From contig JAERTI010000020.1 in assembly GCA_016844925.1 (NCBI GenBank), positions 97 through 64,096 of the forward strand: a DNA stretch of 64,000 nt, given 5' to 3'. This stretch comes from Candidatus Uhrbacteria bacterium. Lineage in GTDB: Bacteria; Patescibacteriota; Patescibacteriia; UBA9934; GWF2-40-263. Shown in pieces: positions 454 through 57,267 of the stretch. The stretch's first letter is position 1. Each line of letters starts with the position of its first letter. Made by a program: the position numbers and the translations under genes. The notes below the pieces were generated by a model that was given only the letters and a program-made list of their open reading frames with translations, had not been told where the DNA came from and made no database searches.

Positions 454-1128
454 TTACACCACTTGGACAAACACCAGCTTTTTGTCCTTGAATCGGTACA
501 GGGCTGCTGGTCTGTGGGCCTGTCCGTAGCGCTTCTTTCCTGTTGCCTTAATCATGTGCAGTTCAGCAATACGCTTACGGAAGTTTCGCTTATCGAGCGT
601 CTCTCCAAGAATGATCTCGTACACGCGTTGGAGCTCTGTGAGGGTGAACTCTTTTGGGAGCAGGCTCCAGACAATGTTGGTGTATTGGATCTTTGTTTTA
701 ATGCGCTCCACCGTTATCTTGACCACCTGCTTGTGATCATAGGCCAGGGGAGGGAGCTTACTTACCGGCCACCAGCGGACATCCATGTACTTTTCATTGG
801 TGGTGAGAGACACTTTTTCATCTGGCACCAGGGCAACGTGAGCGACAGAGATGACACGGCCGGCTGGGTCGCGATCTGGTTCATCAAAGGTCATAAGTTG
901 TTCTAGGTAGACCTGTGTGAGCCCGGTTGATTCTTTGAGAATCCGTTGGGCGGCTGTTTCTGTTGTTTCGTCTTCCTCGATGAGTCCACCTGGGAGTGCC
1001 CACTGTGCTTCAAAGGGAGCTTTTTTCATCTGGATAAGAAGGACGCAGAGTTCATCTTCACGAATGGTGAGAATGGCAGCGTCTACAGCAACCTTAATGT
1101 TTTGTGTGGAAGCGTGATACTTGGCCAT
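454..1128 (-). CDS. nrtR: NrtR-like Nudix-related transcriptional regulator (N-terminal Nudix domain plus C-terminal winged helix)
   Basis: The Nudix box is GGLIEEDETTETAAQRILKESTGL. The C-terminal half (FTLTELQRVYEIILGETLDKRNFRKRI...RPAALYRF) matches the NrtR DNA-binding domain signature. The likely start is the ATG at 1128 (MAKYHAST); the ORF track extends to a TTG at 1158. Confidence 0.65.
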   Translation of the reverse strand: MAKYHASTQNIKVAVDAAILTIREDELCVLLIQMKKAPFEAQWALPGGLIEEDETTETAAQRILKESTGLTQVYLEQLMTFDEPDRDPAGRVISVAHVALVPDEKVSLTTNEKYMDVRWWPVSKLPPLAYDHKQVVKITVERIKTKIQYTNIVWSLLPKEFTLTELQRVYEIILGETLDKRNFRKRIAELHMIKATGKKRYGQAHRPAALYRFKDKKLVFVQVV

Positions 1129-1215
1129 AAAGAGGAAACTAGCGCTTATTGGTGTCAATTATACACAAAGTAATCTGGGTGTCAAGCAGGGAAAAAACCG
1201 TTATACTTTTTGCGT

Positions 1216-4204: not shown

Positions 4205-4309
4205 ATACAGGTCTTTTTTTATGCGGTGTCCACAGCCGTTTTTTTATATCCCTTAACAAGATTGCCAACTCCGTCTATACTTCCGGCGTTTTTAAGATTA
4301 AACAACGTT

Positions 4310-5704
4310 ATGTCTGAGATTGTGAACCATGCGAAGGCACTATGGCGCGCAAAGCGTTTCCATGTGATCTCCTTCGCTTTTTTAATTGTCCTCGCGGCAA
4401 ATAGTGTTGCTGCAGGCGGAGGTGGAGGAGCTGAGGGACACGGAGCAAGTATTACCTTGCTTTGGATCGCCGTCATTTTGATCGCGGCTAAGCTTGCGTC
4501 ACTCGTAGAGCGATGGGGTCAGCCGGCTGTGCTCGGTGAGCTGGTCATGGGTGTGATTCTCGGAAACTTGTTCATGGCAGGGATCGACGTGTTTGAGTCC
4601 ATCAAACATGACGAGATCATTGCGTTCCTTTCTGAGCTTGGTGTGATCATCTTGCTCTTCCAGATCGGACTGGAATCCAACATTGCTGAAATGAAGAAGG
4701 TGGGAGTGCGCGCTCTGATGGTTGCTATCATTGGTGTGGTCGCTCCGTTTGTTCTCGGTGCCTATGTGGTTGGGCCATGGCTCATGCCAGGCATGGAGAT
4801 GGTTGCGTACCTCTTCTTGGGTGCAGCTCTTACCGCTACCTCTGTAGGTATTACCGCCCGCGTGTTCAAGGACCTTGGTAAGTTGCAGACAAAGGAGGCA
4901 CAGATTGTTCTTGGTGCCGCCGTATTTGATGATGTATTTGGTCTGATCATCCTCGCGGTGGTGAGTGCTATTGCGACTATTGGCGCTGTATCCGTTGGCG
5001 CTGTAAGTATCATTGTTGCCAAAGCGTTCTTGTTTCTGGCCGGTTCTGTGGTTCTGGGAATGCTCATGGCTCCACGTCTTGGAAAGATTTTTTCAAAGAT
5101 TCACACCGGTGTGGGCATGAAGTTTACTTTGGCCGTGTCCATCTGTTTGATCTTTGCTTACGTGGCCGGACTCATCGGCTTGGCACCAATCATTGGTGCG
5201 TTTGCTGCCGGATTGGTTCTGGATCCTGTGCACTTCCGTTACTTTAAGGCGCCAAAGATGGTGAATGACGTGAAGAAGCTTGCAGAAAAGCACAATGGAG
5301 AGTTCAAGGAAGAATTGGAAGAGGCTTTGGAGCACCATGGCCATCGTCACATTGAGGATTTGATCGAGCCACTCGCTTACTTCCTTGTGCCAATCTTCTT
5401 TATTGTTACAGGTATGAAGGTGGCTCTTGAGAGTCTCTTCAACACACAAATCCTTGGTGTGGCTTTGGCTATTACCGTTGTAGCTATCATCGGTAAGTAC
5501 ATCTCTGGATATGCTGCCGGAAACGTGAACAAGAAAATTGTTGGTGTTGGAATGATTCCTCGTGGAGAGGTGGGGCTTATTTTCGCAGCGATTGGTCAGA
5601 GTCTTGGCGTGCTTTCAGATGACCTGTTCTCTGTCATTATTGTCATGGTGATCTTGACTACCCTCATGGCACCACCGATTCTCGCGAAGTTGCTCAAGAA
5701 ATAA
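4310..5704 (+). CDS. Monovalent cation:proton antiporter (CPA1/CPA2, Na+/H+ exchanger family)
   Basis: Multi-TM protein with the typical exchanger core (VLGELVMGVILGN..., GLESN...) and a polar insertion in the middle. The start is likely the ATG at 4310. Confidence 0.65.
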   Translation: MSEIVNHAKALWRAKRFHVISFAFLIVLAANSVAAGGGGGAEGHGASITLLWIAVILIAAKLASLVERWGQPAVLGELVMGVILGNLFMAGIDVFESIKHDEIIAFLSELGVIILLFQIGLESNIAEMKKVGVRALMVAIIGVVAPFVLGAYVVGPWLMPGMEMVAYLFLGAALTATSVGITARVFKDLGKLQTKEAQIVLGAAVFDDVFGLIILAVVSAIATIGAVSVGAVSIIVAKAFLFLAGSVVLGMLMAPRLGKIFSKIHTGVGMKFTLAVSICLIFAYVAGLIGLAPIIGAFAAGLVLDPVHFRYFKAPKMVNDVKKLAEKHNGEFKEELEEALEHHGHRHIEDLIEPLAYFLVPIFFIVTGMKVALESLFNTQILGVALAITVVAIIGKYISGYAAGNVNKKIVGVGMIPRGEVGLIFAAIGQSLGVLSDDLFSVIIVMVILTTLMAPPILAKLLKK

Positions 5705-5780
5705 AGCTGAAGTTAAAAAAGCTGCCCACGGGCAGCTTTTTTGTTTGCAAGAAAAAATCCCTGCCAGAAGGGCAGGGGGT

Positions 5781-6570: not shown

Positions 6571-6598
6571 TAAAAAGGACCCAACGTGTTGTCGGGTC
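6571..6598 (-). terminator. Intrinsic terminator after island gene 1
   Basis: GC-rich hairpin (GACCCGACAACACGTTGGGTCC on the minus strand) followed by TTTTTA. Confidence 0.4.
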
Positions 6599-6609
6599 AG
6601 TGTTCACGG

Positions 6610-8019
6610 CTACTGCTCGTGAATGATTCGACTGATGCGCGCCATGACCTTGTGGGCCAACGGGAAGCGGTGTTCATCTGGAATCTTGACGTGGTATCGA
6701 CCGCCCTGAGCACGGACGAGTCTTTTGCTCACCATGTCCTGGAGTGTCGCTGCGAAGACTCGTCGTGGAGAGGAGACGTCAGGAAGGAACTGGCGACACA
6801 TGCGCCACAGGCGGTTTTCGTTGAGGTGAGGACTCGCAGCGAAGGTTATGAGCCTGTTTCCTTCACGAAGAAACCCGCAGAGCAGGATGGCCCGCGCGAA
6901 GGGGATGTTCAGGTCAGGGAACAGGTCCTCGAGTTCCAGCTTCTCCATCAGTTGCGGGAAGTCGGTGGCCCCGGTGGCCTGTTCGCGTTTCCTGTAGTTT
7001 GGGTGGTGACGCTTCAGACCGGTGAACTTCGTTCGTTCGGTTTTTGGTTCCGGGAGTGAGAGACGTTGTCTCTCAAGAGTGTGTCGCCGCTGCTCTTCAT
7101 GGAGCATCTTCCAGGCATCGTAATCGTCTTTTGTTCCGCCCAGGGCGAAGAAGTCGACCAGGGACAGGTCGTTTTTGAACGGCTCCCACGCGTTACACAC
7201 CGCAACAAGCTGGTCGAATGTGTCCATTCTGTAGACGATGGATGCGTCCGAGCAGATGGCCTTGAGGTGACGCGCGTTGAGGTATCCGTTGACGATGTAT
7301 CGAAGCAGGTTATCAACCACCTGGATGTCGGTAGCGTCTGCGAGCTGAGCGATGCGGCCGCAGCTTACCCGTCTGCGGTTCGCCTCTTTGATCATCATCC
7401 ACAACTTTGGGATGCCGACTTTCACACCGTGAGGTGAGGTGTATGCCGCGTATGGTGTGGGGACGTTCCAGCTTTGAAAAAGCTTCGTGACCAGCTGCAG
7501 CTGTGCACTGTTTCCCAGAGGGGTGCCAATGCTTGGCTGCTCATGCCCCGGTCTCCAACCGTAGAGTTCGGCCATGAACCTGAACATGTGTCCGCAGCGT
7601 TTCCATATAGGCATCTTCATCAGGTGCCTGATTGCTGGAACGGCTTCGCCCCAGTTCAGCATGGCTGTTGCCGCCTGGACGAATTCCAGGGTTTCGACCC
7701 ATGAGAGCTGACCGAACCCCCAGTGCTCCATGATGGCGAGTGTGTTGAGAGCGTGGTCAGCTCGTCCTCCACACGCGTCGACCAGTGCCCCGAGGAATTG
7801 TTCGGTATTGGGCAGGCACACAGCGCCCACGCCGGTGGAGAGAGTGATGATCCTTTCCAGTGCCTGATGAGCCTCCTTTCTTAGGCTCGGCTTCATGTTG
7901 GATTGTTCCACGAAACTTCTGGTCACGGCGACGACAGTCTCCGCTGGCAGTGAGGTTTCGTAGAAGTACGGACTCAGGTCAAGGCGCGGTGCCTCGACCG
8001 GTGATTCGGTGGTCGACAT
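6610..8019 (-). CDS. Island paralog 1 of an unrecognised four-member family (C-terminal winged-helix-like module, KRHH motif)
   Basis: Likely start is the ATG at 8019 (MSTTESP); the ORF track extends to 8085 through the leader hairpin. Central motif ALGGTKDDYDAWKML, basic motif GLKRHHPNY, C-terminus LQDMVSKRLVRAQGGRYHVKI. Shares its C-terminal architecture with 8141, 9760 and 11400. Confidence 0.6.
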   Translation of the reverse strand: MSTTESPVEAPRLDLSPYFYETSLPAETVVAVTRSFVEQSNMKPSLRKEAHQALERIITLSTGVGAVCLPNTEQFLGALVDACGGRADHALNTLAIMEHWGFGQLSWVETLEFVQAATAMLNWGEAVPAIRHLMKMPIWKRCGHMFRFMAELYGWRPGHEQPSIGTPLGNSAQLQLVTKLFQSWNVPTPYAAYTSPHGVKVGIPKLWMMIKEANRRRVSCGRIAQLADATDIQVVDNLLRYIVNGYLNARHLKAICSDASIVYRMDTFDQLVAVCNAWEPFKNDLSLVDFFALGGTKDDYDAWKMLHEEQRRHTLERQRLSLPEPKTERTKFTGLKRHHPNYRKREQATGATDFPQLMEKLELEDLFPDLNIPFARAILLCGFLREGNRLITFAASPHLNENRLWRMCRQFLPDVSSPRRVFAATLQDMVSKRLVRAQGGRYHVKIPDEHRFPLAHKVMARISRIIHEQ

Positions 8020-8020
8020 A

Positions 8021-8101
8021 GTGTCGATCCTTTCTCTTCGCCGCACGCCCCGGAAGGGGGGCGAAGGTATCGACACTAGCGGCATGAAGGATTCATGTCA
8101 A
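8021..8101 (-). promoter_or_regulatory. Type-B 5' region of paralog 1: TTGACA, 17 nt, TAGTGT promoter overlapping a conserved leader hairpin that contains the SD
   Basis: Plus-strand tgtcaa at 8096-8101 and acacta at 8073-8078. Inverted repeat GTGTCGAT(8021-8028)...ATCGACAC(8069-8076) with inner stem CTTCGCC/GGCGAAG. The 3' arm carries AAAGGA and ends 2 nt before the ATG. It is nearly identical to 11286..11356. Confidence 0.5.
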
Positions 8102-8102
8102 T

Positions 8103-8134
8103 AAAAAAACCCCGACGTTGTGGCCGGGAAGGGG
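8103..8134 (-). terminator. Intrinsic terminator after paralog 2
   Basis: GC-rich hairpin CCCCTTCCCGGCCACAACGTCGGGG followed by T7 on the minus strand. Confidence 0.45.
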
Positions 8135-8140
8135 CGTCTC

Positions 8141-9571
8141 TCACGAGGCGTGCGTTGCCGTGATGAGCGTTTCTATGTGGGTAATCTGCTGCCGGGCTTG
8201 GGTGTAGCGACCAGAGGGCTTCTTGAGCCTCAGGCGCTTCCCCTCACGTGTGAGCAGGTGCTCTGTCTCGAGCTGGCCGAGGAACTTCTTGAGCTCCCGT
8301 CGGCTTCCAAAGACAGTTCTGCACTGTTTCCAGAGCTTCTTCTCGTCCCGTCCTTCACAGTCGGTGAGCGACCGTGGGAGACGATCTCCGTGTCGGAGGA
8401 ATCCCTCAACGATGATGTGTCGGAGCCGGTCTTCACCCAGCGCTGCAAACGTCGACGTGACGTTCAGCTTGCGCCGCAGGGCGTCGAAGTCGATCTGCTT
8501 GGGCTTGGGAGGCCTGTAGCTGTGGTGGTGACGCTTGTTGCCCGTTGCCTGAGGGGTGGGTTCCTCCGACAAACGCGTGCATGGCTGGGGTGATGGCTTT
8601 GAGGCCATTGAACGCTCCAGCTCTTCTTGCTCAAGCAGCTGCAGGAATTCCCAGTCATCCGCGGTTCCGCCAGCCTCGTGGAAAGCGGACCAGTCTTTGG
8701 GGCGACCAGCATTGTGCCACTCACTGAGAAAGTCTGGGAACGCTTCGGGGCCAATTTTCTCGAGCAAGTCCTTTTCGCCAAGGGTCCGTCTCAGGACCTT
8801 GTCTTCACGTAGGTGACTAGGGGTAGATTCAGCGATCGCCATGATCTCCAGAAACGTCGTGTCCTGCAACAGGCGGACGATCTGGTCCAGCGAGTAGTCA
8901 CGTGTCAGCAGGTGTAGTTGCTTCCATACGAGAAAGAGAGGGGCATTCACTCCCGAGTTCTTGTAGGTCAGCTCCAAGTCCTCAAGGGCTTGGTCGCCAA
9001 GCTCCTGTGCGTAGTCTTCGATCTGCTGCCTCGCTCCCATGGCGATCTTGAGCGTGGCGATGAACAGCGAAACGCTTGCGATCGGTTTTGGGTGCTGAGG
9101 GTACGTCGCGAGACGAGCACGCTCCTGATCTGAGGAGAAGTTGGCCAACTGGTGCGCCACCTGAACGAGTTCAAAGGCACGAAGTGAGGCCTCGGGCATC
9201 TTTTCAAGGACGCGCTCATTGGTTGTGCTGAGGTAATCCGGAGAGAGCTTGACCCATAGGCCGAGATCGCAGAATTCTCTGTAGAGCCGTACGTACATCT
9301 TTGGGTGGCTGTAGGTGAATCCGTACAGCGCAACACCTCCAATGACTTCGAGCATCCTCGTAAGCCTGAGCTCGGTCTTGTCGAGGTCTTCGAGCACGGC
9401 GTTGAGTGTTGTCAGGTACCCGTAGCGGCCAATGGGGCCACGTCGCTTGACCATCCGCTCGAGCATGGCTCTGGCCGCCTTGGCGATTTCACCTTGCAGC
9501 TTGAGTGTGTCCATGTAGGCCCGGATGGTTCCGGGGACGTGTTCGAAGTCTTTATAGTGCTCCAGTTCCAT
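8141..9571 (-). CDS. Island paralog 2 (same unrecognised family)
   Basis: Motifs SEWHNAGRPKDWSAFHEAGGTADDW and GNKRHHHSYRPPKPK, C-terminus LGQLETEHLLTREGKRLRLKK. The start is uncertain: ATG at 9571 (MELEHYK) or TTG at 9601. No strong SD at either. Confidence 0.55.
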   Translation of the reverse strand: MELEHYKDFEHVPGTIRAYMDTLKLQGEIAKAARAMLERMVKRRGPIGRYGYLTTLNAVLEDLDKTELRLTRMLEVIGGVALYGFTYSHPKMYVRLYREFCDLGLWVKLSPDYLSTTNERVLEKMPEASLRAFELVQVAHQLANFSSDQERARLATYPQHPKPIASVSLFIATLKIAMGARQQIEDYAQELGDQALEDLELTYKNSGVNAPLFLVWKQLHLLTRDYSLDQIVRLLQDTTFLEIMAIAESTPSHLREDKVLRRTLGEKDLLEKIGPEAFPDFLSEWHNAGRPKDWSAFHEAGGTADDWEFLQLLEQEELERSMASKPSPQPCTRLSEEPTPQATGNKRHHHSYRPPKPKQIDFDALRRKLNVTSTFAALGEDRLRHIIVEGFLRHGDRLPRSLTDCEGRDEKKLWKQCRTVFGSRRELKKFLGQLETEHLLTREGKRLRLKKPSGRYTQARQQITHIETLITATHAS

Positions 9572-9695
9572 CAGGTAGAAACCTTGGGAGCCTTTACGCA
9601 AACCACGCTCTGCGGGGTTGGCTACGTGCAGGTGCTTAACGTACTTGAGTTTCCGACCCAGAGGGGCCTCCTTTACTCCTGGGTAGGAGAGAATG

Positions 9696-9724
9696 AGAAT
9701 AGGGCCTTAGGGGGTTATCGTCAA
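9696..9724 (-). promoter_or_regulatory. Type-A promoter for paralog 2 (TTGACG, 17 nt, TATTCT)
   Basis: Plus-strand cgtcaa at 9719-9724 and agaata at 9696-9701. Homologous to the module at 12976..13040. Confidence 0.5.
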
Positions 9725-9730
9725 GGGAAT

Positions 9731-9761
9731 GAAAAAGAAAAAAGAGACTCCGGAGAGTCTC
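9731..9761 (-). terminator. Intrinsic terminator after paralog 3; it overlaps the stop codon
   Basis: Perfect hairpin GAGACTC-TCCG-GAGTCTC at 9744-9761, followed on the minus strand by TTTTTTCTTTTTC. Confidence 0.55.
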
Positions 9762-11277
9762 AAGTTGCGTACTTCGCCATCAGGCCACGGAGCTGCGTGA
9801 GGAGCTGGTGAGCCTTGGGAAAGCGTGTATTTGGGAGTGCTAGGGAGTAGTTGCCGCGCTTGAAGGTGACTAGATGTGCCTCCAGGAGTGGCCGGAGTTC
9901 TCGAGTGAACTGCTTACGACTACTTGCTTCAACGTGTCCCTTCACCTGTCTCCAGAGCTTCTTGCCATCTCTGGAAGGAAGCTTTGTCCAGTCGGTTGTG
10001 AGGCGGTCACCGTCACGGAGCAAGCCGTACACGAGTACGACTCGCGTCAGTGCTTCGTCCAGATCAGGAAAGTGCGCATGGACGTTGAGCTCGGAGCAGA
10101 GGGCCCCGAAGTCTACGTCTGTGGACTTTTCTGCTGGGATGAAGTTCGCGTGATGCCGTTTTCGACCGGTGGGGGTCTGGTTTGGTCGGACAGGGGTCGC
10201 TAGTCCTCCTGTGGGCTTTGTGGTTGAGGAGGGTTTTTGCACAGACCGTTGTTGGTCAAGGTGCCTCTCCCAGTCCTGCGCCCGCCCGCCCGCTTCCCAG
10301 AATTCCATGAGGTCACATGGCTTTTCGGCCTTTTCCCATTCTGCGAGCAGTGAACGCATGATCTGGTCGTCCCAGTAAGCGTCTACCAGAAAGCCGGGCT
10401 CGCGGAAGCAAAAGATCAAGGCATCGGGGGTGAGGATCTCGCGTTCAATGAGGGAGAGGGTCATGAAGCAGAACTCAGCTGAGTGCTCTTTCAGCATCTT
10501 GTGAGTAAGACGCTGGGAGAACCCTCTTTGTTTCGCAAGAGCGAAGCGTTCCCAGAGGCGAGTTGTTGTGACCACTTCTTGGTCAAACTTGATCTTCAGG
10601 TCAGGTCCCAACGTTACGTCGAGAGAGGTGATGAGCCTAATGGCCGACAAGAGTGCTTCAAAATCTTGTGGCTCAGGTAGGTTGTGCGGCTCTCTTGTCC
10701 ATCCTTCCTCTTCCGTGTAGTTGCACAGAAGGGCAGAGCTAGCAAGAAGTGCGACGGATTTCGGGTTGAAGTCCGCATCTCCTATATCGAATGCATCAGG
10801 GTGCGCTAAGGCAATTTGATACATACGTTTTGCAAAAGCCGCGAGCTCATGAGAGCTTTTGAATCTCAGGTCCGCCATCGACAGCTTGTGAACGACGCTG
10901 GCGACGATGTTGGGAGTTTCTCCTAAGCAGTCTGTGAGCCGGTCGATCAAGCTGTTGACCGTTCCAAGGAAGCCGTGCTGGTTTTCCGGGCCGTCACCAA
11001 GAGTCATTCTGGTGAAGGCATCGACGACCACCTTCTTCTTGTCTTCAGGGAGCTCAGCATCGCGGAGCCAGTTACGCCACGTTGGAGCGACGAACCGTGG
11101 GTCGAAACCGCAGGATTTCCAGCGTTTGTCTTTCGGCTCCATGTAAATGGTTACGCCTCTAGACAGTCGTTCCTTGCCAAGGATTTCAGCAAGTTCTTCG
11201 GAGGAAGAGATCTTGAGAGAACGGATGTGTGAGAAGCGTTTTTTTGAGTAACGCCGCTTTTTCTGCTTGGTGGGCAT
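9760..11277 (-). CDS. Island paralog 3 (same unrecognised family)
   Basis: Likely start is the ATG at 11277 (MPTKQKK); the ORF track extends to 11331 through the leader element. Motifs MEFWEAGGRAQDWERHL and TGRKRHHANF, C-terminus LRPLLEAHLVTFKRGNYSLAL. Confidence 0.6.
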   Translation of the reverse strand: MPTKQKKRRYSKKRFSHIRSLKISSSEELAEILGKERLSRGVTIYMEPKDKRWKSCGFDPRFVAPTWRNWLRDAELPEDKKKVVVDAFTRMTLGDGPENQHGFLGTVNSLIDRLTDCLGETPNIVASVVHKLSMADLRFKSSHELAAFAKRMYQIALAHPDAFDIGDADFNPKSVALLASSALLCNYTEEEGWTREPHNLPEPQDFEALLSAIRLITSLDVTLGPDLKIKFDQEVVTTTRLWERFALAKQRGFSQRLTHKMLKEHSAEFCFMTLSLIEREILTPDALIFCFREPGFLVDAYWDDQIMRSLLAEWEKAEKPCDLMEFWEAGGRAQDWERHLDQQRSVQKPSSTTKPTGGLATPVRPNQTPTGRKRHHANFIPAEKSTDVDFGALCSELNVHAHFPDLDEALTRVVLVYGLLRDGDRLTTDWTKLPSRDGKKLWRQVKGHVEASSRKQFTRELRPLLEAHLVTFKRGNYSLALPNTRFPKAHQLLTQLRGLMAKYAT

Positions 11278-11285
11278 GTAAGGAG

Positions 11286-11356
11286 CCTTTCTCTTCGCCA
11301 GCTTCCCGGAGGGAGGCGAAGGTATCGACACTATCGAGCTCCTTGATTCATGTCAA
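11286..11356 (-). promoter_or_regulatory. Type-B 5' region of paralog 3: TTGACA, 17 nt, TAGTGT promoter plus a conserved leader element
   Basis: Plus-strand tgtcaa at 11351-11356 and acacta at 11328-11333. Leader arms GTGTCGATACCTTCGCC (5') and GGCGAAGAGAAAGG (3') are identical to those of paralog 1. Confidence 0.5.
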
Positions 11357-11382
11357 CAAAAAACTCCGACGCATGGTCGGAG
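11357..11382 (-). terminator. Intrinsic terminator after paralog 4
   Basis: Hairpin CTCCGAC-CATGC-GTCGGAG followed by TTTTTTG on the minus strand. Confidence 0.5.
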
Positions 11383-11399: not shown

Positions 11400-12947
11400 T
11401 CAGGTATTTGCACAGAGCTTCGTAAGCGCTGTACGCACGTTGAGTGCTCCGTGCGTTGAGTGAGAGTTCGTAGCGATTTGGTACTTACCACCACTCTGCC
11501 GGACGAGTCGGATGGACTCGAGCTGGCGCAACGCGCTGTTGATGTCACGGTCCTGGACCCTACCCAGCTGCCTGACTCGGCTGCGGAGCTTACTGGCCTT
11601 GATCTGCGGCCAGCGGGCCGGCTGCATGAGACGGTCGCCAGAGCGCATGAGGGTCAGCAGGATGGCTGAGACAAGATCTGCATCGTGGTCCGGGAGGTGC
11701 TTGAGCACAATCTCGCGGACCAAGTTGCGGAGCCTGTCCCAATCGGTCTGCGGCTTCTCCTTCGGTGGCTCGAAGTTTCGATGCCGGCGCTTGTTTCCGG
11801 TGGATCGCTGGGGCTTGGGAGGCTTGGCTGCCTGCACCCGAGGGATCCGCGCCCGTTCTCGTCGTCGAGCCTCAAGGAGCCGTCTCTTCTCGGCTTGCGA
11901 GCTCAGGTGCGCTTGCCAGCTCACGCTGGTGCCTCCCTGGCGCAGAAACGCACGGAAGTCATCAGGTCGTCCGGCTTCACTCCAGTGCTCCAGCAGGGCA
12001 ACGACCTCGGTAGGGACGTCCATCTTGATCTCACGCGCGTGGCGCGCAAGGGTTCGGACCTGCTCCTGGTCGAGTGCACCGGTGCTGTACTGGGCGATGA
12101 CATAGAGAACGACCTTCATGGTGCTGTGTTGCACCAGGGAACGGACATCTGTCACGGCGAACCCGTGGTCCGTCAGGATGGTCAGCAGGGACCAGATGCG
12201 TCCAAGGGAAACGGTGTCTGCACCGGCTTCATCGGACAGCGTGTCGTCGGGGCTGAGCACGCGCTCGTCCTGGATGAGAAGATGCACGGCCAAGACGATC
12301 AGTTCAGGGTCGTGCGCCGACAGTACCACCGGAAGGTCTTCTACACCACATGCCCGCAGGTGCTTGATGATGTGGACTAACGCTGTGGTGATGACTTCTG
12401 TGGCATTGATGTCGATCCTGGATTCAGGAATCTCGTTGCGAAGCTGTAGTGGCTTGATGGCCTTGCGGAGCCCTGTGTAGAGACGCTCGTAGTCACCATA
12501 GTGTTCGTACAAGTAGCCGGTACGTTCCATGGCAGCCAGCGAGGTCATCCCCAGTGTGGGGTGCCCGCGGAAGAGTTTGGTAAAGCGCTGGATGAGCCGG
12601 TCGCACCGCCCAAGGAGGGTGGTGCCAGGATGACCCTTCCTGGCAAGGCGCAGCAAGGCGTTGACGCCAAACGTCCTGTACCCAGGGTTGAATTGAGTCA
12701 AATCCGTGAGGAAGTTCCTGATGATCCCGCCCACACAGTTCGGGTGGTTGTAGAGCTTGCGGATCGTCTCACTCGGAGGGAGGACAACAAGCCTTCGCAT
12801 CTCCTTACGAAATTCTTCGTCGGGATCGTCGATCTCACGAGCATCCTTCTCCCAGAAGGTGGGGGTCTCGCTCATGGTCACGAGCTCAGGAATGTCCTGG
12901 ACATCGATGCTCAAGTGCACCAACTTCAGACGGCCAACCTTGGCCAT
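11400..12947 (-). CDS. Island paralog 4 (same unrecognised family)
   Basis: Likely start is the ATG at 12947 (MAKVGRLKL) with SD AAGGAG. Motifs LEHWSEAGRPDDFRAFLRQGGTSVSW and TGNKRRHRNFEPPKEK, C-terminus LRQLESIRLVRQSGGKYQIA. Confidence 0.6.
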   Translation of the reverse strand: MAKVGRLKLVHLSIDVQDIPELVTMSETPTFWEKDAREIDDPDEEFRKEMRRLVVLPPSETIRKLYNHPNCVGGIIRNFLTDLTQFNPGYRTFGVNALLRLARKGHPGTTLLGRCDRLIQRFTKLFRGHPTLGMTSLAAMERTGYLYEHYGDYERLYTGLRKAIKPLQLRNEIPESRIDINATEVITTALVHIIKHLRACGVEDLPVVLSAHDPELIVLAVHLLIQDERVLSPDDTLSDEAGADTVSLGRIWSLLTILTDHGFAVTDVRSLVQHSTMKVVLYVIAQYSTGALDQEQVRTLARHAREIKMDVPTEVVALLEHWSEAGRPDDFRAFLRQGGTSVSWQAHLSSQAEKRRLLEARRRERARIPRVQAAKPPKPQRSTGNKRRHRNFEPPKEKPQTDWDRLRNLVREIVLKHLPDHDADLVSAILLTLMRSGDRLMQPARWPQIKASKLRSRVRQLGRVQDRDINSALRQLESIRLVRQSGGKYQIATNSHSTHGALNVRTALTKLCANT

Positions 12948-12975
12948 GATTGCTCCTTGGAAAGGGCAGATGATG

Positions 12976-13004
12976 AGGTTAGCGACGATATGGAGGCGCG
13001 TCAA
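12976..13004 (-). promoter_or_regulatory. Type-A promoter for paralog 4 (TTGACG, 17 nt, TAACCT)
   Basis: Plus-strand cgtcaa at 12999-13004 and aggtta at 12976-12981. The surrounding roughly 45 bp are homologous to 9696..9761. Confidence 0.45.
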
Positions 13005-13010
13005 GGGAGT

Positions 13011-13040
13011 AGGAAAAGAAAAAGAGAGACGGAGTCTCTC
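13011..13040 (-). terminator. Intrinsic terminator after the hydrolase at 13039..13959
   Basis: Hairpin GAGAGAC-TCC-GTCTCTC at 13024-13040 followed by TTTTTCTTTTCC on the minus strand. Confidence 0.5.
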
Positions 13041-14431: not shown

Positions 14432-15745
14432 ATGTCTGATGTATTTAAGATTACTGGAGGGGCACCACTCCACGGAGAGATTACGCTTTCTGGTGCAAAA
14501 AATGCGGCTTCAAAAATGATGATTGCCAGCCTGCTTACAGATGAGCAGGTAATTTTGTTTAACGTTCCACGTCAGCGAGAGACGGAGATCACACAGGAGA
14601 TCCTTGAGGCAGTGGGGAGCAAGATCGATTGGAAAGATGACCACACGCTCCATGTGCATACGCCGGAGATTACGGATACGTCCGTGCGTAAGTTGTCACG
14701 ACGAAATCGCATTAGCATTCTTTCGATCGGTCCGCTCTTGCATCGCGCAGGAGAGGCGATCGTTCCTGGTCCTGGGGGATGTCCACTTGGCCCACGTCCG
14801 GTGAACTTTCATATTGAGATTCTTAAACAGATGGGAGCGGAGGTAGAGAATATTGAAGAGGGGTATCACGCCCGCGTGAACGGTCGGCTTCAAGGTGCGG
14901 TGATTGAGCTCGCATATCCTTCTGTCGGAGCGACGGAGACAGCGATCTTGGCTGGTGTGTTGGCTGAAGGCCGAACAACGATTCTGAATGCGGCAGGAGA
15001 GCCTGAGGTGAAGGAGCTTATTATGATGCTCCAGAATATGGGCGCGATCATTCAGGTAAACACTGGGCGTCATATTGAAATTATCGGCGTCGAGAAACTG
15101 CACGGCGTGCGCGCACGCGTGATGCCGGACCGTATGGAGGCTGCGTCGTATGCCTGCATGGCTCTTGGAACTGGTGGAGAGATTTTGGTGCGCGATGCAG
15201 AGCAGGCGCACATGATTACGTTTCTCAATGCTGTGCGAAAGATTGGGGGAGAGTACGAGGTTCGTCCTGACGGGATTTTGTTCCGTGGAACAAAGGGGCT
15301 GAAGGGGCTAGAGATGGAAACGGACACACACCCTGGGTTCATGACCGACTGGCAGCAGCCGTTTGTGGTTGTGCTGACGCAGGCCAAGGGGACAAGTGTG
15401 GTACATGAGACAGTGTATGAGGAGCGGTTTGGGTACACGAAATCGCTCGTGAAGATGGGGGCAGAGGTGACATTATTCAGTAATTGTCTTGGTGAGATCG
15501 AGTGCCGATTTAAAGGGCGTAACTATAAGCACTCAGCAGTGATTACCGGACCAAGGAATTTGAAAGCGGCAGAGGTTGAGGTGCCAGACATCCGCGCGGG
15601 ACTCGCGTTGGTGGTGGCAGCGCTGGTAGCTGATGGAACATCGACCTTGAGCGGGATTCATCACCTGGACCGCGGGTATGAACGGTTGGAGGAGAAGTTG
15701 AGAGGTGTGGGGGCGAAGATTGAACGTGTGAGTGTAAATGAGTAA
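14432..15745 (+). CDS. murA: UDP-N-acetylglucosamine 1-carboxyvinyltransferase
   Basis: N-terminus FKITGGAPLHGEITLSGAKNAASKMMIAS matches the MurA/EPSP-synthase fold. Length 437 aa. Confidence 0.9.
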   Translation: MSDVFKITGGAPLHGEITLSGAKNAASKMMIASLLTDEQVILFNVPRQRETEITQEILEAVGSKIDWKDDHTLHVHTPEITDTSVRKLSRRNRISILSIGPLLHRAGEAIVPGPGGCPLGPRPVNFHIEILKQMGAEVENIEEGYHARVNGRLQGAVIELAYPSVGATETAILAGVLAEGRTTILNAAGEPEVKELIMMLQNMGAIIQVNTGRHIEIIGVEKLHGVRARVMPDRMEAASYACMALGTGGEILVRDAEQAHMITFLNAVRKIGGEYEVRPDGILFRGTKGLKGLEMETDTHPGFMTDWQQPFVVVLTQAKGTSVVHETVYEERFGYTKSLVKMGAEVTLFSNCLGEIECRFKGRNYKHSAVITGPRNLKAAEVEVPDIRAGLALVVAALVADGTSTLSGIHHLDRGYERLEEKLRGVGAKIERVSVNE

Positions 15746-56210: not shown

Positions 56211-57071
56211 TCAGCGGACCAGGAGCATGAGCGCGCGGCTCAGCTTCTCGGCCACCTCCTTGGCCCGATCACGATGCGTCTCGTGGTCGGGCGTCTCCTT
56301 GTTGTCGTTGGTGATCAGGGCCACCGGGATGACCTTCACGTCCGGGTAGAGCGCGGCGACCGAGCACTCGGGCTTCACGCTCATGCCCACCACGGCGCCG
56401 CCGGAGTTGAGCATCAGGCGCTTGTCGCCGATGGACTCGAAGTGGGGGCCGCGGAACATGACGTAGGGCCCCATGTTGAGCTCGTCGCGCTCGCGCAGTG
56501 CGCCGTCCGGCTGGAAATGCCGGGTCGCATCCTGGTCGATGCATGCGGCGGGGTTGACGAATTCACCGGGGAACAGGGGCATGGTGTCCGAGCCCCAGCT
56601 CACGAAGTCGGTGATGTAGAAGAGGTCGCCCATGCTCAGGTGGCCCCACAGGGCACCAGCGGCGCAGGTGAGGACGAACTTCTTCACCCCGAGCTTGATG
56701 AGCACCTCGATCTGCAAGCGCACCATGAGGCGGACGTCCGGGTTGAACGTGTCCTCGTTCATGTGGATGCGACCGCGCAGGACGATCACGCGCTTGGGCT
56801 TGCCGTCGACCTCGACGGTGCCCAGCTCCAGGCGACGCTCGTGCCCCTCCAGTTCGTCGAGCTTGCTGAAGGCACCGATCTCGGTCAGGCGCACGGTGTG
56901 CGTGGCCTCGAAGGGGAAGGCATCACCCCAGCCCGTGCCCAGCACGATGGCCGCGTCGATCTCCTCGTCATGGGCCAGGTCGAAGCGGTGACGCAGGTCA
57001 CGCTCACATTTTTGCAGCATGCCTTCACTCGTCTTGTCGCCAGCGAGGCGGTAGTAATCTGCCCGTTTCAT
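56211..57071 (-). CDS. Purine nucleoside phosphorylase / MTA phosphorylase family (PNP family 2); very GC-rich
   Basis: GTGWGDAF, RGRIHMNE and MSVKPECSVAALYPDVKVIPVALITND correspond to the PNP/MTAP motifs. About 63-65% GC. Likely start is the ATG at 57071. Confidence 0.65.
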   Translation of the reverse strand: MKRADYYRLAGDKTSEGMLQKCERDLRHRFDLAHDEEIDAAIVLGTGWGDAFPFEATHTVRLTEIGAFSKLDELEGHERRLELGTVEVDGKPKRVIVLRGRIHMNEDTFNPDVRLMVRLQIEVLIKLGVKKFVLTCAAGALWGHLSMGDLFYITDFVSWGSDTMPLFPGEFVNPAACIDQDATRHFQPDGALRERDELNMGPYVMFRGPHFESIGDKRLMLNSGGAVVGMSVKPECSVAALYPDVKVIPVALITNDNKETPDHETHRDRAKEVAEKLSRALMLLVR

Positions 57072-57190
57072 CAGAATCTCCAAAGCTGTACGTCAGCGAC
57101 GAGACCTTAGCAGGCCTGAAAAAGGTGTCAAACTGTCAGTTTATTAACCATTAGTCTTGACCAAATTGAATGAGGAGCGTATAACTGTGG

Positions 57191-57267
57191 CGCGGGGTAG
57201 AGCAGTCAGGCAGCTCGTCGGGCTCATAACCCGAAGGTCGTCGGTTCAAATCCGACCCCCGCAACCA
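57191..57267 (+). tRNA. Initiator tRNA-fMet (CAU)
   Basis: Cloverleaf with anticodon loop CTCATAA, three G-C pairs in the anticodon stem (GGG/CCC) and a C1:A72 mismatch. CCA is encoded. Confidence 0.8.

Follow-up and report, generated by a model that had tools for sequence, protein, structure and literature searches.

A lineage-restricted Parcubacteria protein family with a predicted winged-helix tail and a conserved basic arm

We analyzed 64,000 nucleotides of the Candidatus Uhrbacteria contig JAERTI010000020.1 (assembly GCA_016844925.1, positions 97 to 64,096 of the forward strand), referred to below as the window, and in particular four long open reading frames (ORFs) on its minus strand, named p1 to p4 in order of position. 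The best-supported interpretation of these ORFs is that they encode four paralogs of a new, lineage-restricted winged-helix family of cytoplasmic proteins of ~470-515 residues. The basic C-terminal tail of these proteins is preceded by a short G-x-K-R arm, and tail and arm together are predicted to bind DNA. The coordinates of the genes and of the features described here are collected in Table 1.

Aligned over their full length, the four paralogs are ~21% identical; over their last ~135-140 residues, here called the module, they are 28-32% identical. The module opens with T-G-x-K-R-[HR]-H, and the residues invariant in all four copies include those of this motif (TGxKR.H) as well as D, L, R, G, R, L and others. 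When the modules were compared with one another by BLASTP (database size 1e8), E values of 8e-18, 7e-17 and 2e-8 were obtained for p2/p3, p1/p3 and p1/p2, and values of 6-8e-5 for p1/p4 and p3/p4; the match of p2 to p4 was weak (0.09). The similarity of the modules is far beyond chance, and a C-terminal profile scan of the window found exactly four copies and no others. The first-pass annotation of this DNA had assigned a conserved module to the 3' ends of the four genes, and this holds: five of the six pairs match, the ORFs end exactly at the 3' coordinates it gave, and the semi-conserved segment that it described (DF..L...LN...F..L...G.LR.GDRL) is present. Its intervals were accurate at their 3' ends, but the KRHH or KRRH codons fall at or just beyond their 5' edges. 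No member of the paralog family had a significant match to a family in Pfam, NCBIfam, PHROGs or PADLOC, and nothing significant was found in sequence searches of the PDB with three profiles. The sub-threshold matches included several echoes of winged-helix domains, namely GntR in Pfam (E 0.01-0.17), PdhR in the PDB (E 0.37, aligning G.LR.GdRLp), HVO_A0261_N, CvfB_WH and HTH_Crp_2.

The structure of the module was predicted with AlphaFold2 (AF2) from a 29-sequence alignment of the C-terminal tail with p1 as the first sequence. The mean predicted local distance difference test score (pLDDT) of the model is 91.4 and its predicted template modelling score is 0.82; the core elements, helices H1, H2 and H3 and the strands, have pLDDT values of 92-98. 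The modelled topology is very probably that of a winged helix-turn-helix (HTH), in which H1, a short beta segment, H2 and a presumed recognition helix, H3, are followed by a beta-hairpin wing and an amphipathic C-terminal helix. The same winged-helix domain is seen in a model of full-length p3. A winged-helix-like tail had been proposed in the first pass, to be given up if structure prediction showed no HTH or winged-helix fold; prediction and a Foldseek comparison were carried out, and a confident winged HTH model was obtained. Nearly all of the top Foldseek matches in the PDB were winged-helix proteins, including TubR, RovA, MexR, SlyA, OhrR, PrfA/Crp, YvoA (GntR), IclR, Sso10a, SSV1 F-93 and histone H1.0 (best E 0.034; probability up to 0.98), and most of the best of these are DNA-binding regulators.

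The winged-helix domain carries a net positive charge in 31 of 31 members (median +7, isoelectric point 9.9); for the N-terminal domain, which is acidic to neutral, the medians are -6 and an isoelectric point of 6.0. Lysine or arginine is conserved at module positions 7, 8, 47, 56, 60, 74, 77, 80, 90, 91 and 122, which include positions in the strand region after H1 (56 and 60), on H2 (74, 77 and 80) and in the H3 cap (90 and 91). The exposed H3 positions 94, 95 and 98 vary and differ among the paralogs. The basic patch that had been noticed ahead of the winged helix proved to be a conserved arm whose distance from the domain is fixed. The K-R pair of the arm is found in 26 of 29 members, and where the motif is present its K is conserved in 92% and its R in 100%; this R (R392 in p3) is among the 8 columns whose conservation across the family reaches 90% or more. 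The arm lies 12-14 residues from the domain in 21 of the 23 members with a measurable spacing. With its spacing thus constant, the arm behaves as part of the module.

The full-length p3 model (pLDDT 85) comprises an all-helical domain (approximately residues 65-365), a disordered linker that contains the basic motif (366-407) and the winged helix (408-523), which the linker separates from the helical domain. A short conserved three-helix motif, W...G.P..L..F...GGT...W..H, comes between that domain and the linker. The linker itself is flexible, 35-50 residues long and either charged or Pro-rich. Many members have a strongly E/R/K-rich stretch in this region (A3 columns ~545-585), such as AEKRRLLEARRRERAR in p4, possibly a single charged helix or short coiled coil; others have Pro-rich or PEPEPE spacers. 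No meaningful structural match to the N-terminal domain was found in the PDB or BFVD. The N-terminal two thirds of the proteins had been described as variable, and indeed the N-terminal ~310-340 residues of the paralogs give no significant pairwise BLASTP match. At the profile level, however, they are homologous. Comparison of the N-terminal domains by hhalign gave probabilities above 90% for 11 of 15 subfamily pairs, over ~150-240 columns, and of 90-99%, over 180-240 columns, for all pairs among the p2, p3 and p4 subfamilies; for p1, which is a singleton, the score was weak but the alignment was colinear. By these profile comparisons, the N-terminal ~300 residues of the p2, p3 and p4 subfamilies are one diverged homologous helical domain, and the paralogs therefore represent a single diverging architecture. 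The earlier proposal, in which every paralog would join its own kind of sensor or effector domain to a common tail, is not supported and is corrected accordingly.

Two variants of this architecture were seen. One subfamily (L003 8900..10633, P0027, P0031 and P0032) has an N-terminal extension of two hydrophobic helices that probably span the membrane, and some members of the family may thus be membrane-tethered. At another locus, L009, a member is divided within the linker: a 329-residue N-terminal-domain ORF (8458..9447) stops just past the W..G..L..F motif and is followed by a 154-residue ORF (9454..9918) that begins MRASKKPKKPP and encodes the linker, with the basic arm, and the winged helix. 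A full-length paralog adjoins this pair, for which a natural domain split and a pseudogene are the two readings. Since the two parts are encoded here by adjacent ORFs, the module appears to be separable from the N-terminal domain.

When 1.84 billion cluster representatives were searched exhaustively with HMMER, 43 family proteins were recovered, 36 of them below 1e-10; nearly all are 460-534 residues long and match end to end, and p1 is itself a member at E 1e-120. Members that carry an annotation are named 'hypothetical protein', one of them with the label Parcubacteria group bacterium. A word-indexed homologue search gave no match with the four-paralog alignment or with 25 concatenated C-terminal domains, and only three proteins with p3 alone. 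No relatives were found by tblastn in 72,556 plasmids and 50,697 phages, or in IMG/VR viral contigs and PHROGs; two scans of metagenome contigs yielded one short contig with a relative. None of 31 members matched a PADLOC anti-phage defence model, and the ORFs flanking the paralogs were negative as well. A literature search on Parcubacteria and winged helices also found nothing. The family is small, restricted to a lineage and without recognized relatives.

The one GTDB genome in which a family member was found, the metagenome-assembled genome Parcubacteria group bacterium bin.251, is syntenic with the window. Its gene order is fusA, rpsG, rpsL, M50 peptidase, murA, a variable region, the family member, a 242-residue ORF, antiporter, acyltransferase, S9 peptidase and NrtR. 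The housekeeping proteins of the two loci are 78-93% identical, whereas the syntenic family member of bin.251 is only 38% identical to the best window paralog, p3, and is present there in one copy as against four in the window. Tandem arrays occur elsewhere too, with four members in L005 and two in L003. In the related genome the slot between murA and the family member (L004 5592..9590) is occupied by an ADP-ribosylglycohydrolase and by orphan proteins of 887 and 118 residues, in place of three extra paralogs and the 353-residue ORF; none of these three proteins matched a defence model. The 242-residue ORF is kept beside the family member in that genome (57% identity), and the 353-residue ORF has no counterpart there.

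The module was compared with the DNA-binding families that it most resembles. Like the MarR/SlyA-type regulators (RovA 4aih, MexR 1lnw, SlyA 3qpt, OhrR 2pex), it is predicted to have an H1-beta-H2-H3-wing core with flanking helices, aligned by Foldseek over ~115 columns with probabilities up to 0.98; it is basic, and its C-terminal helix could pair in a dimer. However, there is no match to the Pfam MarR families (PF01047/PF12802) even at E 10, identity is 10-15% and the template modelling (TM) score ~0.4. Moreover, MarR proteins are stand-alone dimers of ~140 residues, whereas the module ends a protein of ~500 residues, follows a disordered linker and has an additional G-x-K-R arm. The likeness to the GntR winged helix (PdhR 5kvr, YvoA 2wv0; PF00392) lies in the pattern hG.LR.GDRLP ... 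S-R-x-x-h-x-x-h-L-x-x-L ... G-x-x-x-h, in the weak Pfam and PdhR matches mentioned above, which arose independently in the Pfam and PDB sequence searches, and in the structural match to YvoA. The module differs in a ~6-residue insertion after the LP segment and in a longer H2-H3 loop, and the domain order is reversed, the GntR winged helix being N-terminal and its effector domain C-terminal. Membership of GntR was rejected on this reversed order and on the scores: the best match reaches 12 bits against a 27-bit cut-off, and 1 of 29 members matches at E 0.01.

TubR (3m8e/3m8f), of type III plasmid partition systems, is a small basic winged helix and gave the lowest Foldseek E value (probability 0.97, TM-score 0.53 on the target), but with a root-mean-square deviation of 8.7 A. 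The paralogs also differ from TubR in context, being tandem and chromosomal, with no adjacent TubZ or centromere repeats and no plasmid relatives; their neighbours are one another, two hydrolase-like ORFs, murA and a CPA2 antiporter gene. Basic N-terminal arms and AT-hooks are familiar neighbours of HTH domains (the lambda repressor and homeodomain arms and the HMGA AT-hook), and the arm described here resembles them in being short, flexible and rich in K/R and in keeping a fixed, short spacing to an HTH-type domain. It differs from the AT-hook in lacking the R-G-R-P core, its motif being [TP]-G-x-K-R-[HG], and in being missing from 3 of 29 members. No member has a GRP core, and the AT-hook reading was rejected.

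DNA binding by the module is plausible because the domain is basic in every member, because K/R residues are conserved on H2 and at the start of H3, and because the arm stands at a fixed 12-14 residues from the domain. We regard it as moderately likely that the basic tail and its arm bind DNA. In the mechanism that we propose, the winged-helix domain would bind double-stranded DNA with H3 in the major groove, and the S-R-[RK] cap, together with the K/R residues of H2 and the G-D-R-L segment, would grip the backbone. The variable exposed positions of H3 could give each paralog a target of its own. The G-x-K-R arm would reach the adjacent backbone or the minor groove, as the basic N-terminal arms of other HTH proteins do. 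The terminal helix may dimerise, as in winged helices of the MarR or TubR type, and regulation or partner binding would fall to the common N-terminal domain.

Several observations weigh against DNA as the ligand. We know of no DNA-bound homologue of the family. No Foldseek match in the PDB was at or below E 0.001, and TM-scores on the query were 0.3-0.44; because of these values, the matches establish the general fold class and no particular family. The connection between H2 and H3 is ~6 residues long and exceeds the classical tight turn. No operator or motif common to all island promoters was found. The rapid divergence and tandem amplification of the family are unusual for ordinary regulators. 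The arm is replaced by PEPEPE linkers in 3 of 29 members and is therefore not essential to the family. Finally, protein-binding winged helices are also among the structures returned by Foldseek: the MotA activation domain (MotA-NTD, probability 0.90-0.99), MAGE-G1/NSE1 and the dimerisation domains of O-methyltransferases.

These protein-binding matches are the starting point for the alternative that survives best, an unlikely one in our judgement. The winged helix could be a module for protein-protein interaction or oligomerisation, as in the MotA activation domain, the WH-B domain of cullin/APC2, MAGE/NSE1 and the methyltransferases, with G-x-K-R as a short linear motif docking on a partner or on the protein's own acidic N-terminal domain. 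ANAPC2 is the commonest weak Pfam echo (4 of 29 members), an intramolecular contact between an acidic N-terminal domain and a basic tail is conceivable, and rapid divergence would fit an arms race of interactions. Yet the best structural matches are mostly DNA-binding regulators, and the positive charge is universal, with conserved K/R gathered on the canonical DNA face, formed by H2 and the H3 cap. The full-length model, moreover, separates the winged helix from the N-terminal domain by the disordered linker.

Some winged helices bind RNA, among them those of the La, SelB and CvfB types, and the module could do the same, its basic arm contacting structured RNA. A basic domain with a flexible arm would suit this role; there are weak echoes of CvfB_WH, TilS_C and IF3_N, and the gene leaders hold stable hairpins. 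These echoes, however, are single-member and sub-threshold, no RNA-binding winged helix is among the structural matches listed, and no RNA gene or Rfam element was found in the island, so that we consider RNA a rather improbable ligand.

We would give a similarly slim chance to a more far-reaching proposal, that the family is a clade-specific invention of the Parcubacteria (candidate phyla radiation) in which a new helical fold was joined to a basic-arm winged helix and then amplified and diversified through conflict or host interaction. Such proteins might sense or silence invading DNA or reprogram the genome of a host cell, and would then be DNA-directed factors of symbiosis or immunity, not ordinary regulators; this too we hold to be a long shot. 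There is room for a conflict-related role because of the rapid divergence, the tandem amplification, the atypical GC content at third codon positions (GC3) and the variable chromosomal slot.

Two further explanations fare worse. One, by which the paralogs would serve a mobile element, integrated or degraded, in replication initiation or in partition (centromere binding), is largely refuted and very improbable. The TubR match, a weak echo of Cdc6_C (E 0.09-0.17) and the higher GC3 of the island genes (0.62-0.86 versus 0.45-0.56 in housekeeping genes) could be cited for it. However, the Cdc6_C echo is below the cut-off, there is no Rep or AAA+ domain like those of the Rep_3/RepA and Cdc6/Orc initiators, and no gene for Rep, AAA+, TubZ, ParA or an integrase lies nearby; nor were iteron-like or other repeat arrays found. 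The locus is chromosomal and syntenic in a related genome, relatives are absent from the plasmid, phage and viral collections, and four tandem copies would make no sense for an initiator. The comparison with replication initiators drawn in the first-pass annotation is not supported. It is likewise highly unlikely that the paralogs are exported effectors with which an episymbiont acts on host-cell DNA, the basic motif being a targeting signal: Parcubacteria-type organisms are thought to be host-dependent, and the family is lineage-restricted, tandemly amplified and fast-evolving compared with its neighbours and has a novel N-terminal fold, but neither a signal peptide nor a gene of a secretion system was seen, some members appear to be anchored in the membrane by their N-terminal hydrophobic helices, and with no eukaryotic context known the reading of KRHH as a nuclear-localisation signal has no basis and was rejected. 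Binding of DNA by the basic tail and its arm remains the function that we favour for the module.

The paralogs lie in an island of six minus-strand genes between the CPA2 antiporter gene and murA, with hydrolase-like ORFs of 242 and 353 residues at its ends. The listed ORFs of p1, p3 and p4 are probably over-extended at their 5' ends. For p1, an independent gene call on a Logan contig also gives 469 residues, and a ribosome-binding site (RBS), AGAAAGGA, lies upstream of the putative start; for p4 the start is the same as that of the Logan call. In p3, it is residue M19 of the ORF that lines up with the start of almost every relative. 'SIPSPP' is common to the N-termini of the p1 and p3 ORFs; because the putative starts lie downstream, this similarity is one of conserved promoter or leader DNA and not of protein.

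Every island gene is followed by a GC hairpin and T-run that resembles a terminator. A few bases past each terminator there is a -35-like sequence, TTGACA or TTGACG, followed by a -10-like hexamer, an RBS and an ATG. Modules similar to the one detailed for p1 in Table 1 precede every island gene. Two types were distinguished: type A upstream of p2 and p4, and type B upstream of p1, p3 and the 242-residue ORF, the latter including a 59-nt repeat (8050-8108 and 11305-11363, 80% identity) that underlies the 'SIPSPP' residues. Each paralog gene thus has the appearance, from its sequence, of a monocistronic transcription unit, and with intact ORFs and their own terminators and promoters the genes look functional. 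The p1 leader (8010..8078, minus strand) is predicted to form a hairpin of -30.1 kcal/mol (z -3.98) whose arms, 8019-8034 and 8063-8078, pair its 5' end with the RBS and start codon; in the p3 leader the inner stem alone is retained (z -1.1). The p1 hairpin may control translation or stabilise the mRNA. An operator role for the inverted repeat upstream of p1 was considered and rejected, the repeat being better read as this leader hairpin over the RBS.

The two flanking hydrolase-like ORFs have GxSxG-like motifs (GFSMG and GFSYGG) and matched no Pfam, NCBIfam or PADLOC family. Elsewhere in the window, an NrtR-type regulator combines a Nudix domain with a winged helix (NrtR_WHD, E 3e-27); it is no kin of the paralog family, and its syntenic relative is 79% identical. 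A PNP_UDP_1 phosphorylase gene of high GC3 lies beside a tRNA-Met gene at 56-58 kb, where GC content is 0.59, and this GC-rich patch could be another acquired segment.

Table 1. Coordinates of the paralog genes, their predicted C-terminal modules and other features of the window (RBS, ribosome-binding site; aa, amino acids).
Feature	Coordinates	Strand	Module residues	Remarks
p1 ORF	6610..8085	-		putative start ATG 8019; gene 6610..8019, 469 aa
p2 ORF	8141..9601	-		486 aa; Logan call of 476 aa would start at ATG 9571
p3 ORF	9760..11331	-		putative start ATG 11277 (MPTKQKK); gene 9760..11277, 505 aa; protein P0001
p4 ORF	11400..13004	-		putative start ATG 12947 (MAKVGRL); gene 11400..12947, 515 aa; protein P0002
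p1 C-terminal module	6613..7032	-		140 aa (modelled sequence); basic arm and predicted winged helix
p2 C-terminal module	8144..8554	-		137 aa
p3 C-terminal module	9763..10179	-		139 aa; winged helix is residues 408-523 of full-length model
p4 C-terminal module	11403..11810	-		136 aa
p1 KRHH motif	7003..7014	-		core of TGLKRHHPNY; flexible arm, pLDDT ~63
p2 KRHH motif	8525..8536	-		TGNKRHHHSY
p3 KRHH motif	10150..10161	-		TGRKRHHANF; inside disordered linker 366-407 of full-length model
p4 KRRH motif	11781..11792	-		TGNKRRHRNF
Low-confidence arm with KRHH			1-24	pLDDT ~63 (AF2)
Short helix			25-31	AF2
p1 H1	6871..6906	-	43-54	followed by G-[DN]-R-L beta segment
Short strands at G-[DN]-R-L			around 56-61	AF2
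p1 H2	6787..6819	-	72-82	conserved K74, R77, R80 (KKLW..R)
p1 H3, presumed recognition helix	6727..6768	-	89-102	conserved S-R-[RK] cap; variable exposed positions
p1 beta-hairpin wing	6688..6717	-	106-115	strands 106-109 and 112-115 around conserved GG (..GG.Y.L)
p1 C-terminal amphipathic helix	6616..6663	-	124-139	after wing
Intergenic module upstream of p1	8073..8129	-		p2 terminator hairpin 8110..8129; -35 TTGACA 8096..8101; -10-like TAGTGT 8073..8078
Terminator-like hairpins with T-run	5759..5777, 6578..6598, 8110..8129, 9744..9761, 11364..11382, 13024..13040			after stop codons, one after every island gene
CPA2 antiporter gene	4226..5704			island border
Flanking ORF, 242 aa	5781..6509	-		GFSMG; GC3 0.86
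Flanking ORF, 353 aa	13039..14100	-		GFSYGG; GC3 0.74
murA	14432..15745			island border
NrtR-type regulator gene	454..1158	-		Nudix and winged helix
PNP_UDP_1 phosphorylase gene	56211..57083	-		GC3 0.89
tRNA-Met gene	57191..57267			

In the candidate phyla radiation, bacterial genomes are very small, recognisable regulators are few and a large part of the proteome lacks annotation. In the lineage studied here, a single genome encodes no fewer than four members of a family of ~500-residue proteins, and in related genomes the arrays comprise two to four genes. The proteins can now be placed with confidence in the winged-helix class as far as their tail is concerned, the remainder being without a structural or sequence relative, and the annotation can be improved from 'hypothetical protein' to 'winged-helix domain protein with a conserved G-x-K-R arm'. 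Should the tail bind DNA, the family would probably be among the largest transcription-factor-like families in these organisms and would offer an entry to their regulation; if its divergence reflects conflict, its members could represent a novel type of DNA-directed factor for defence or host interaction.

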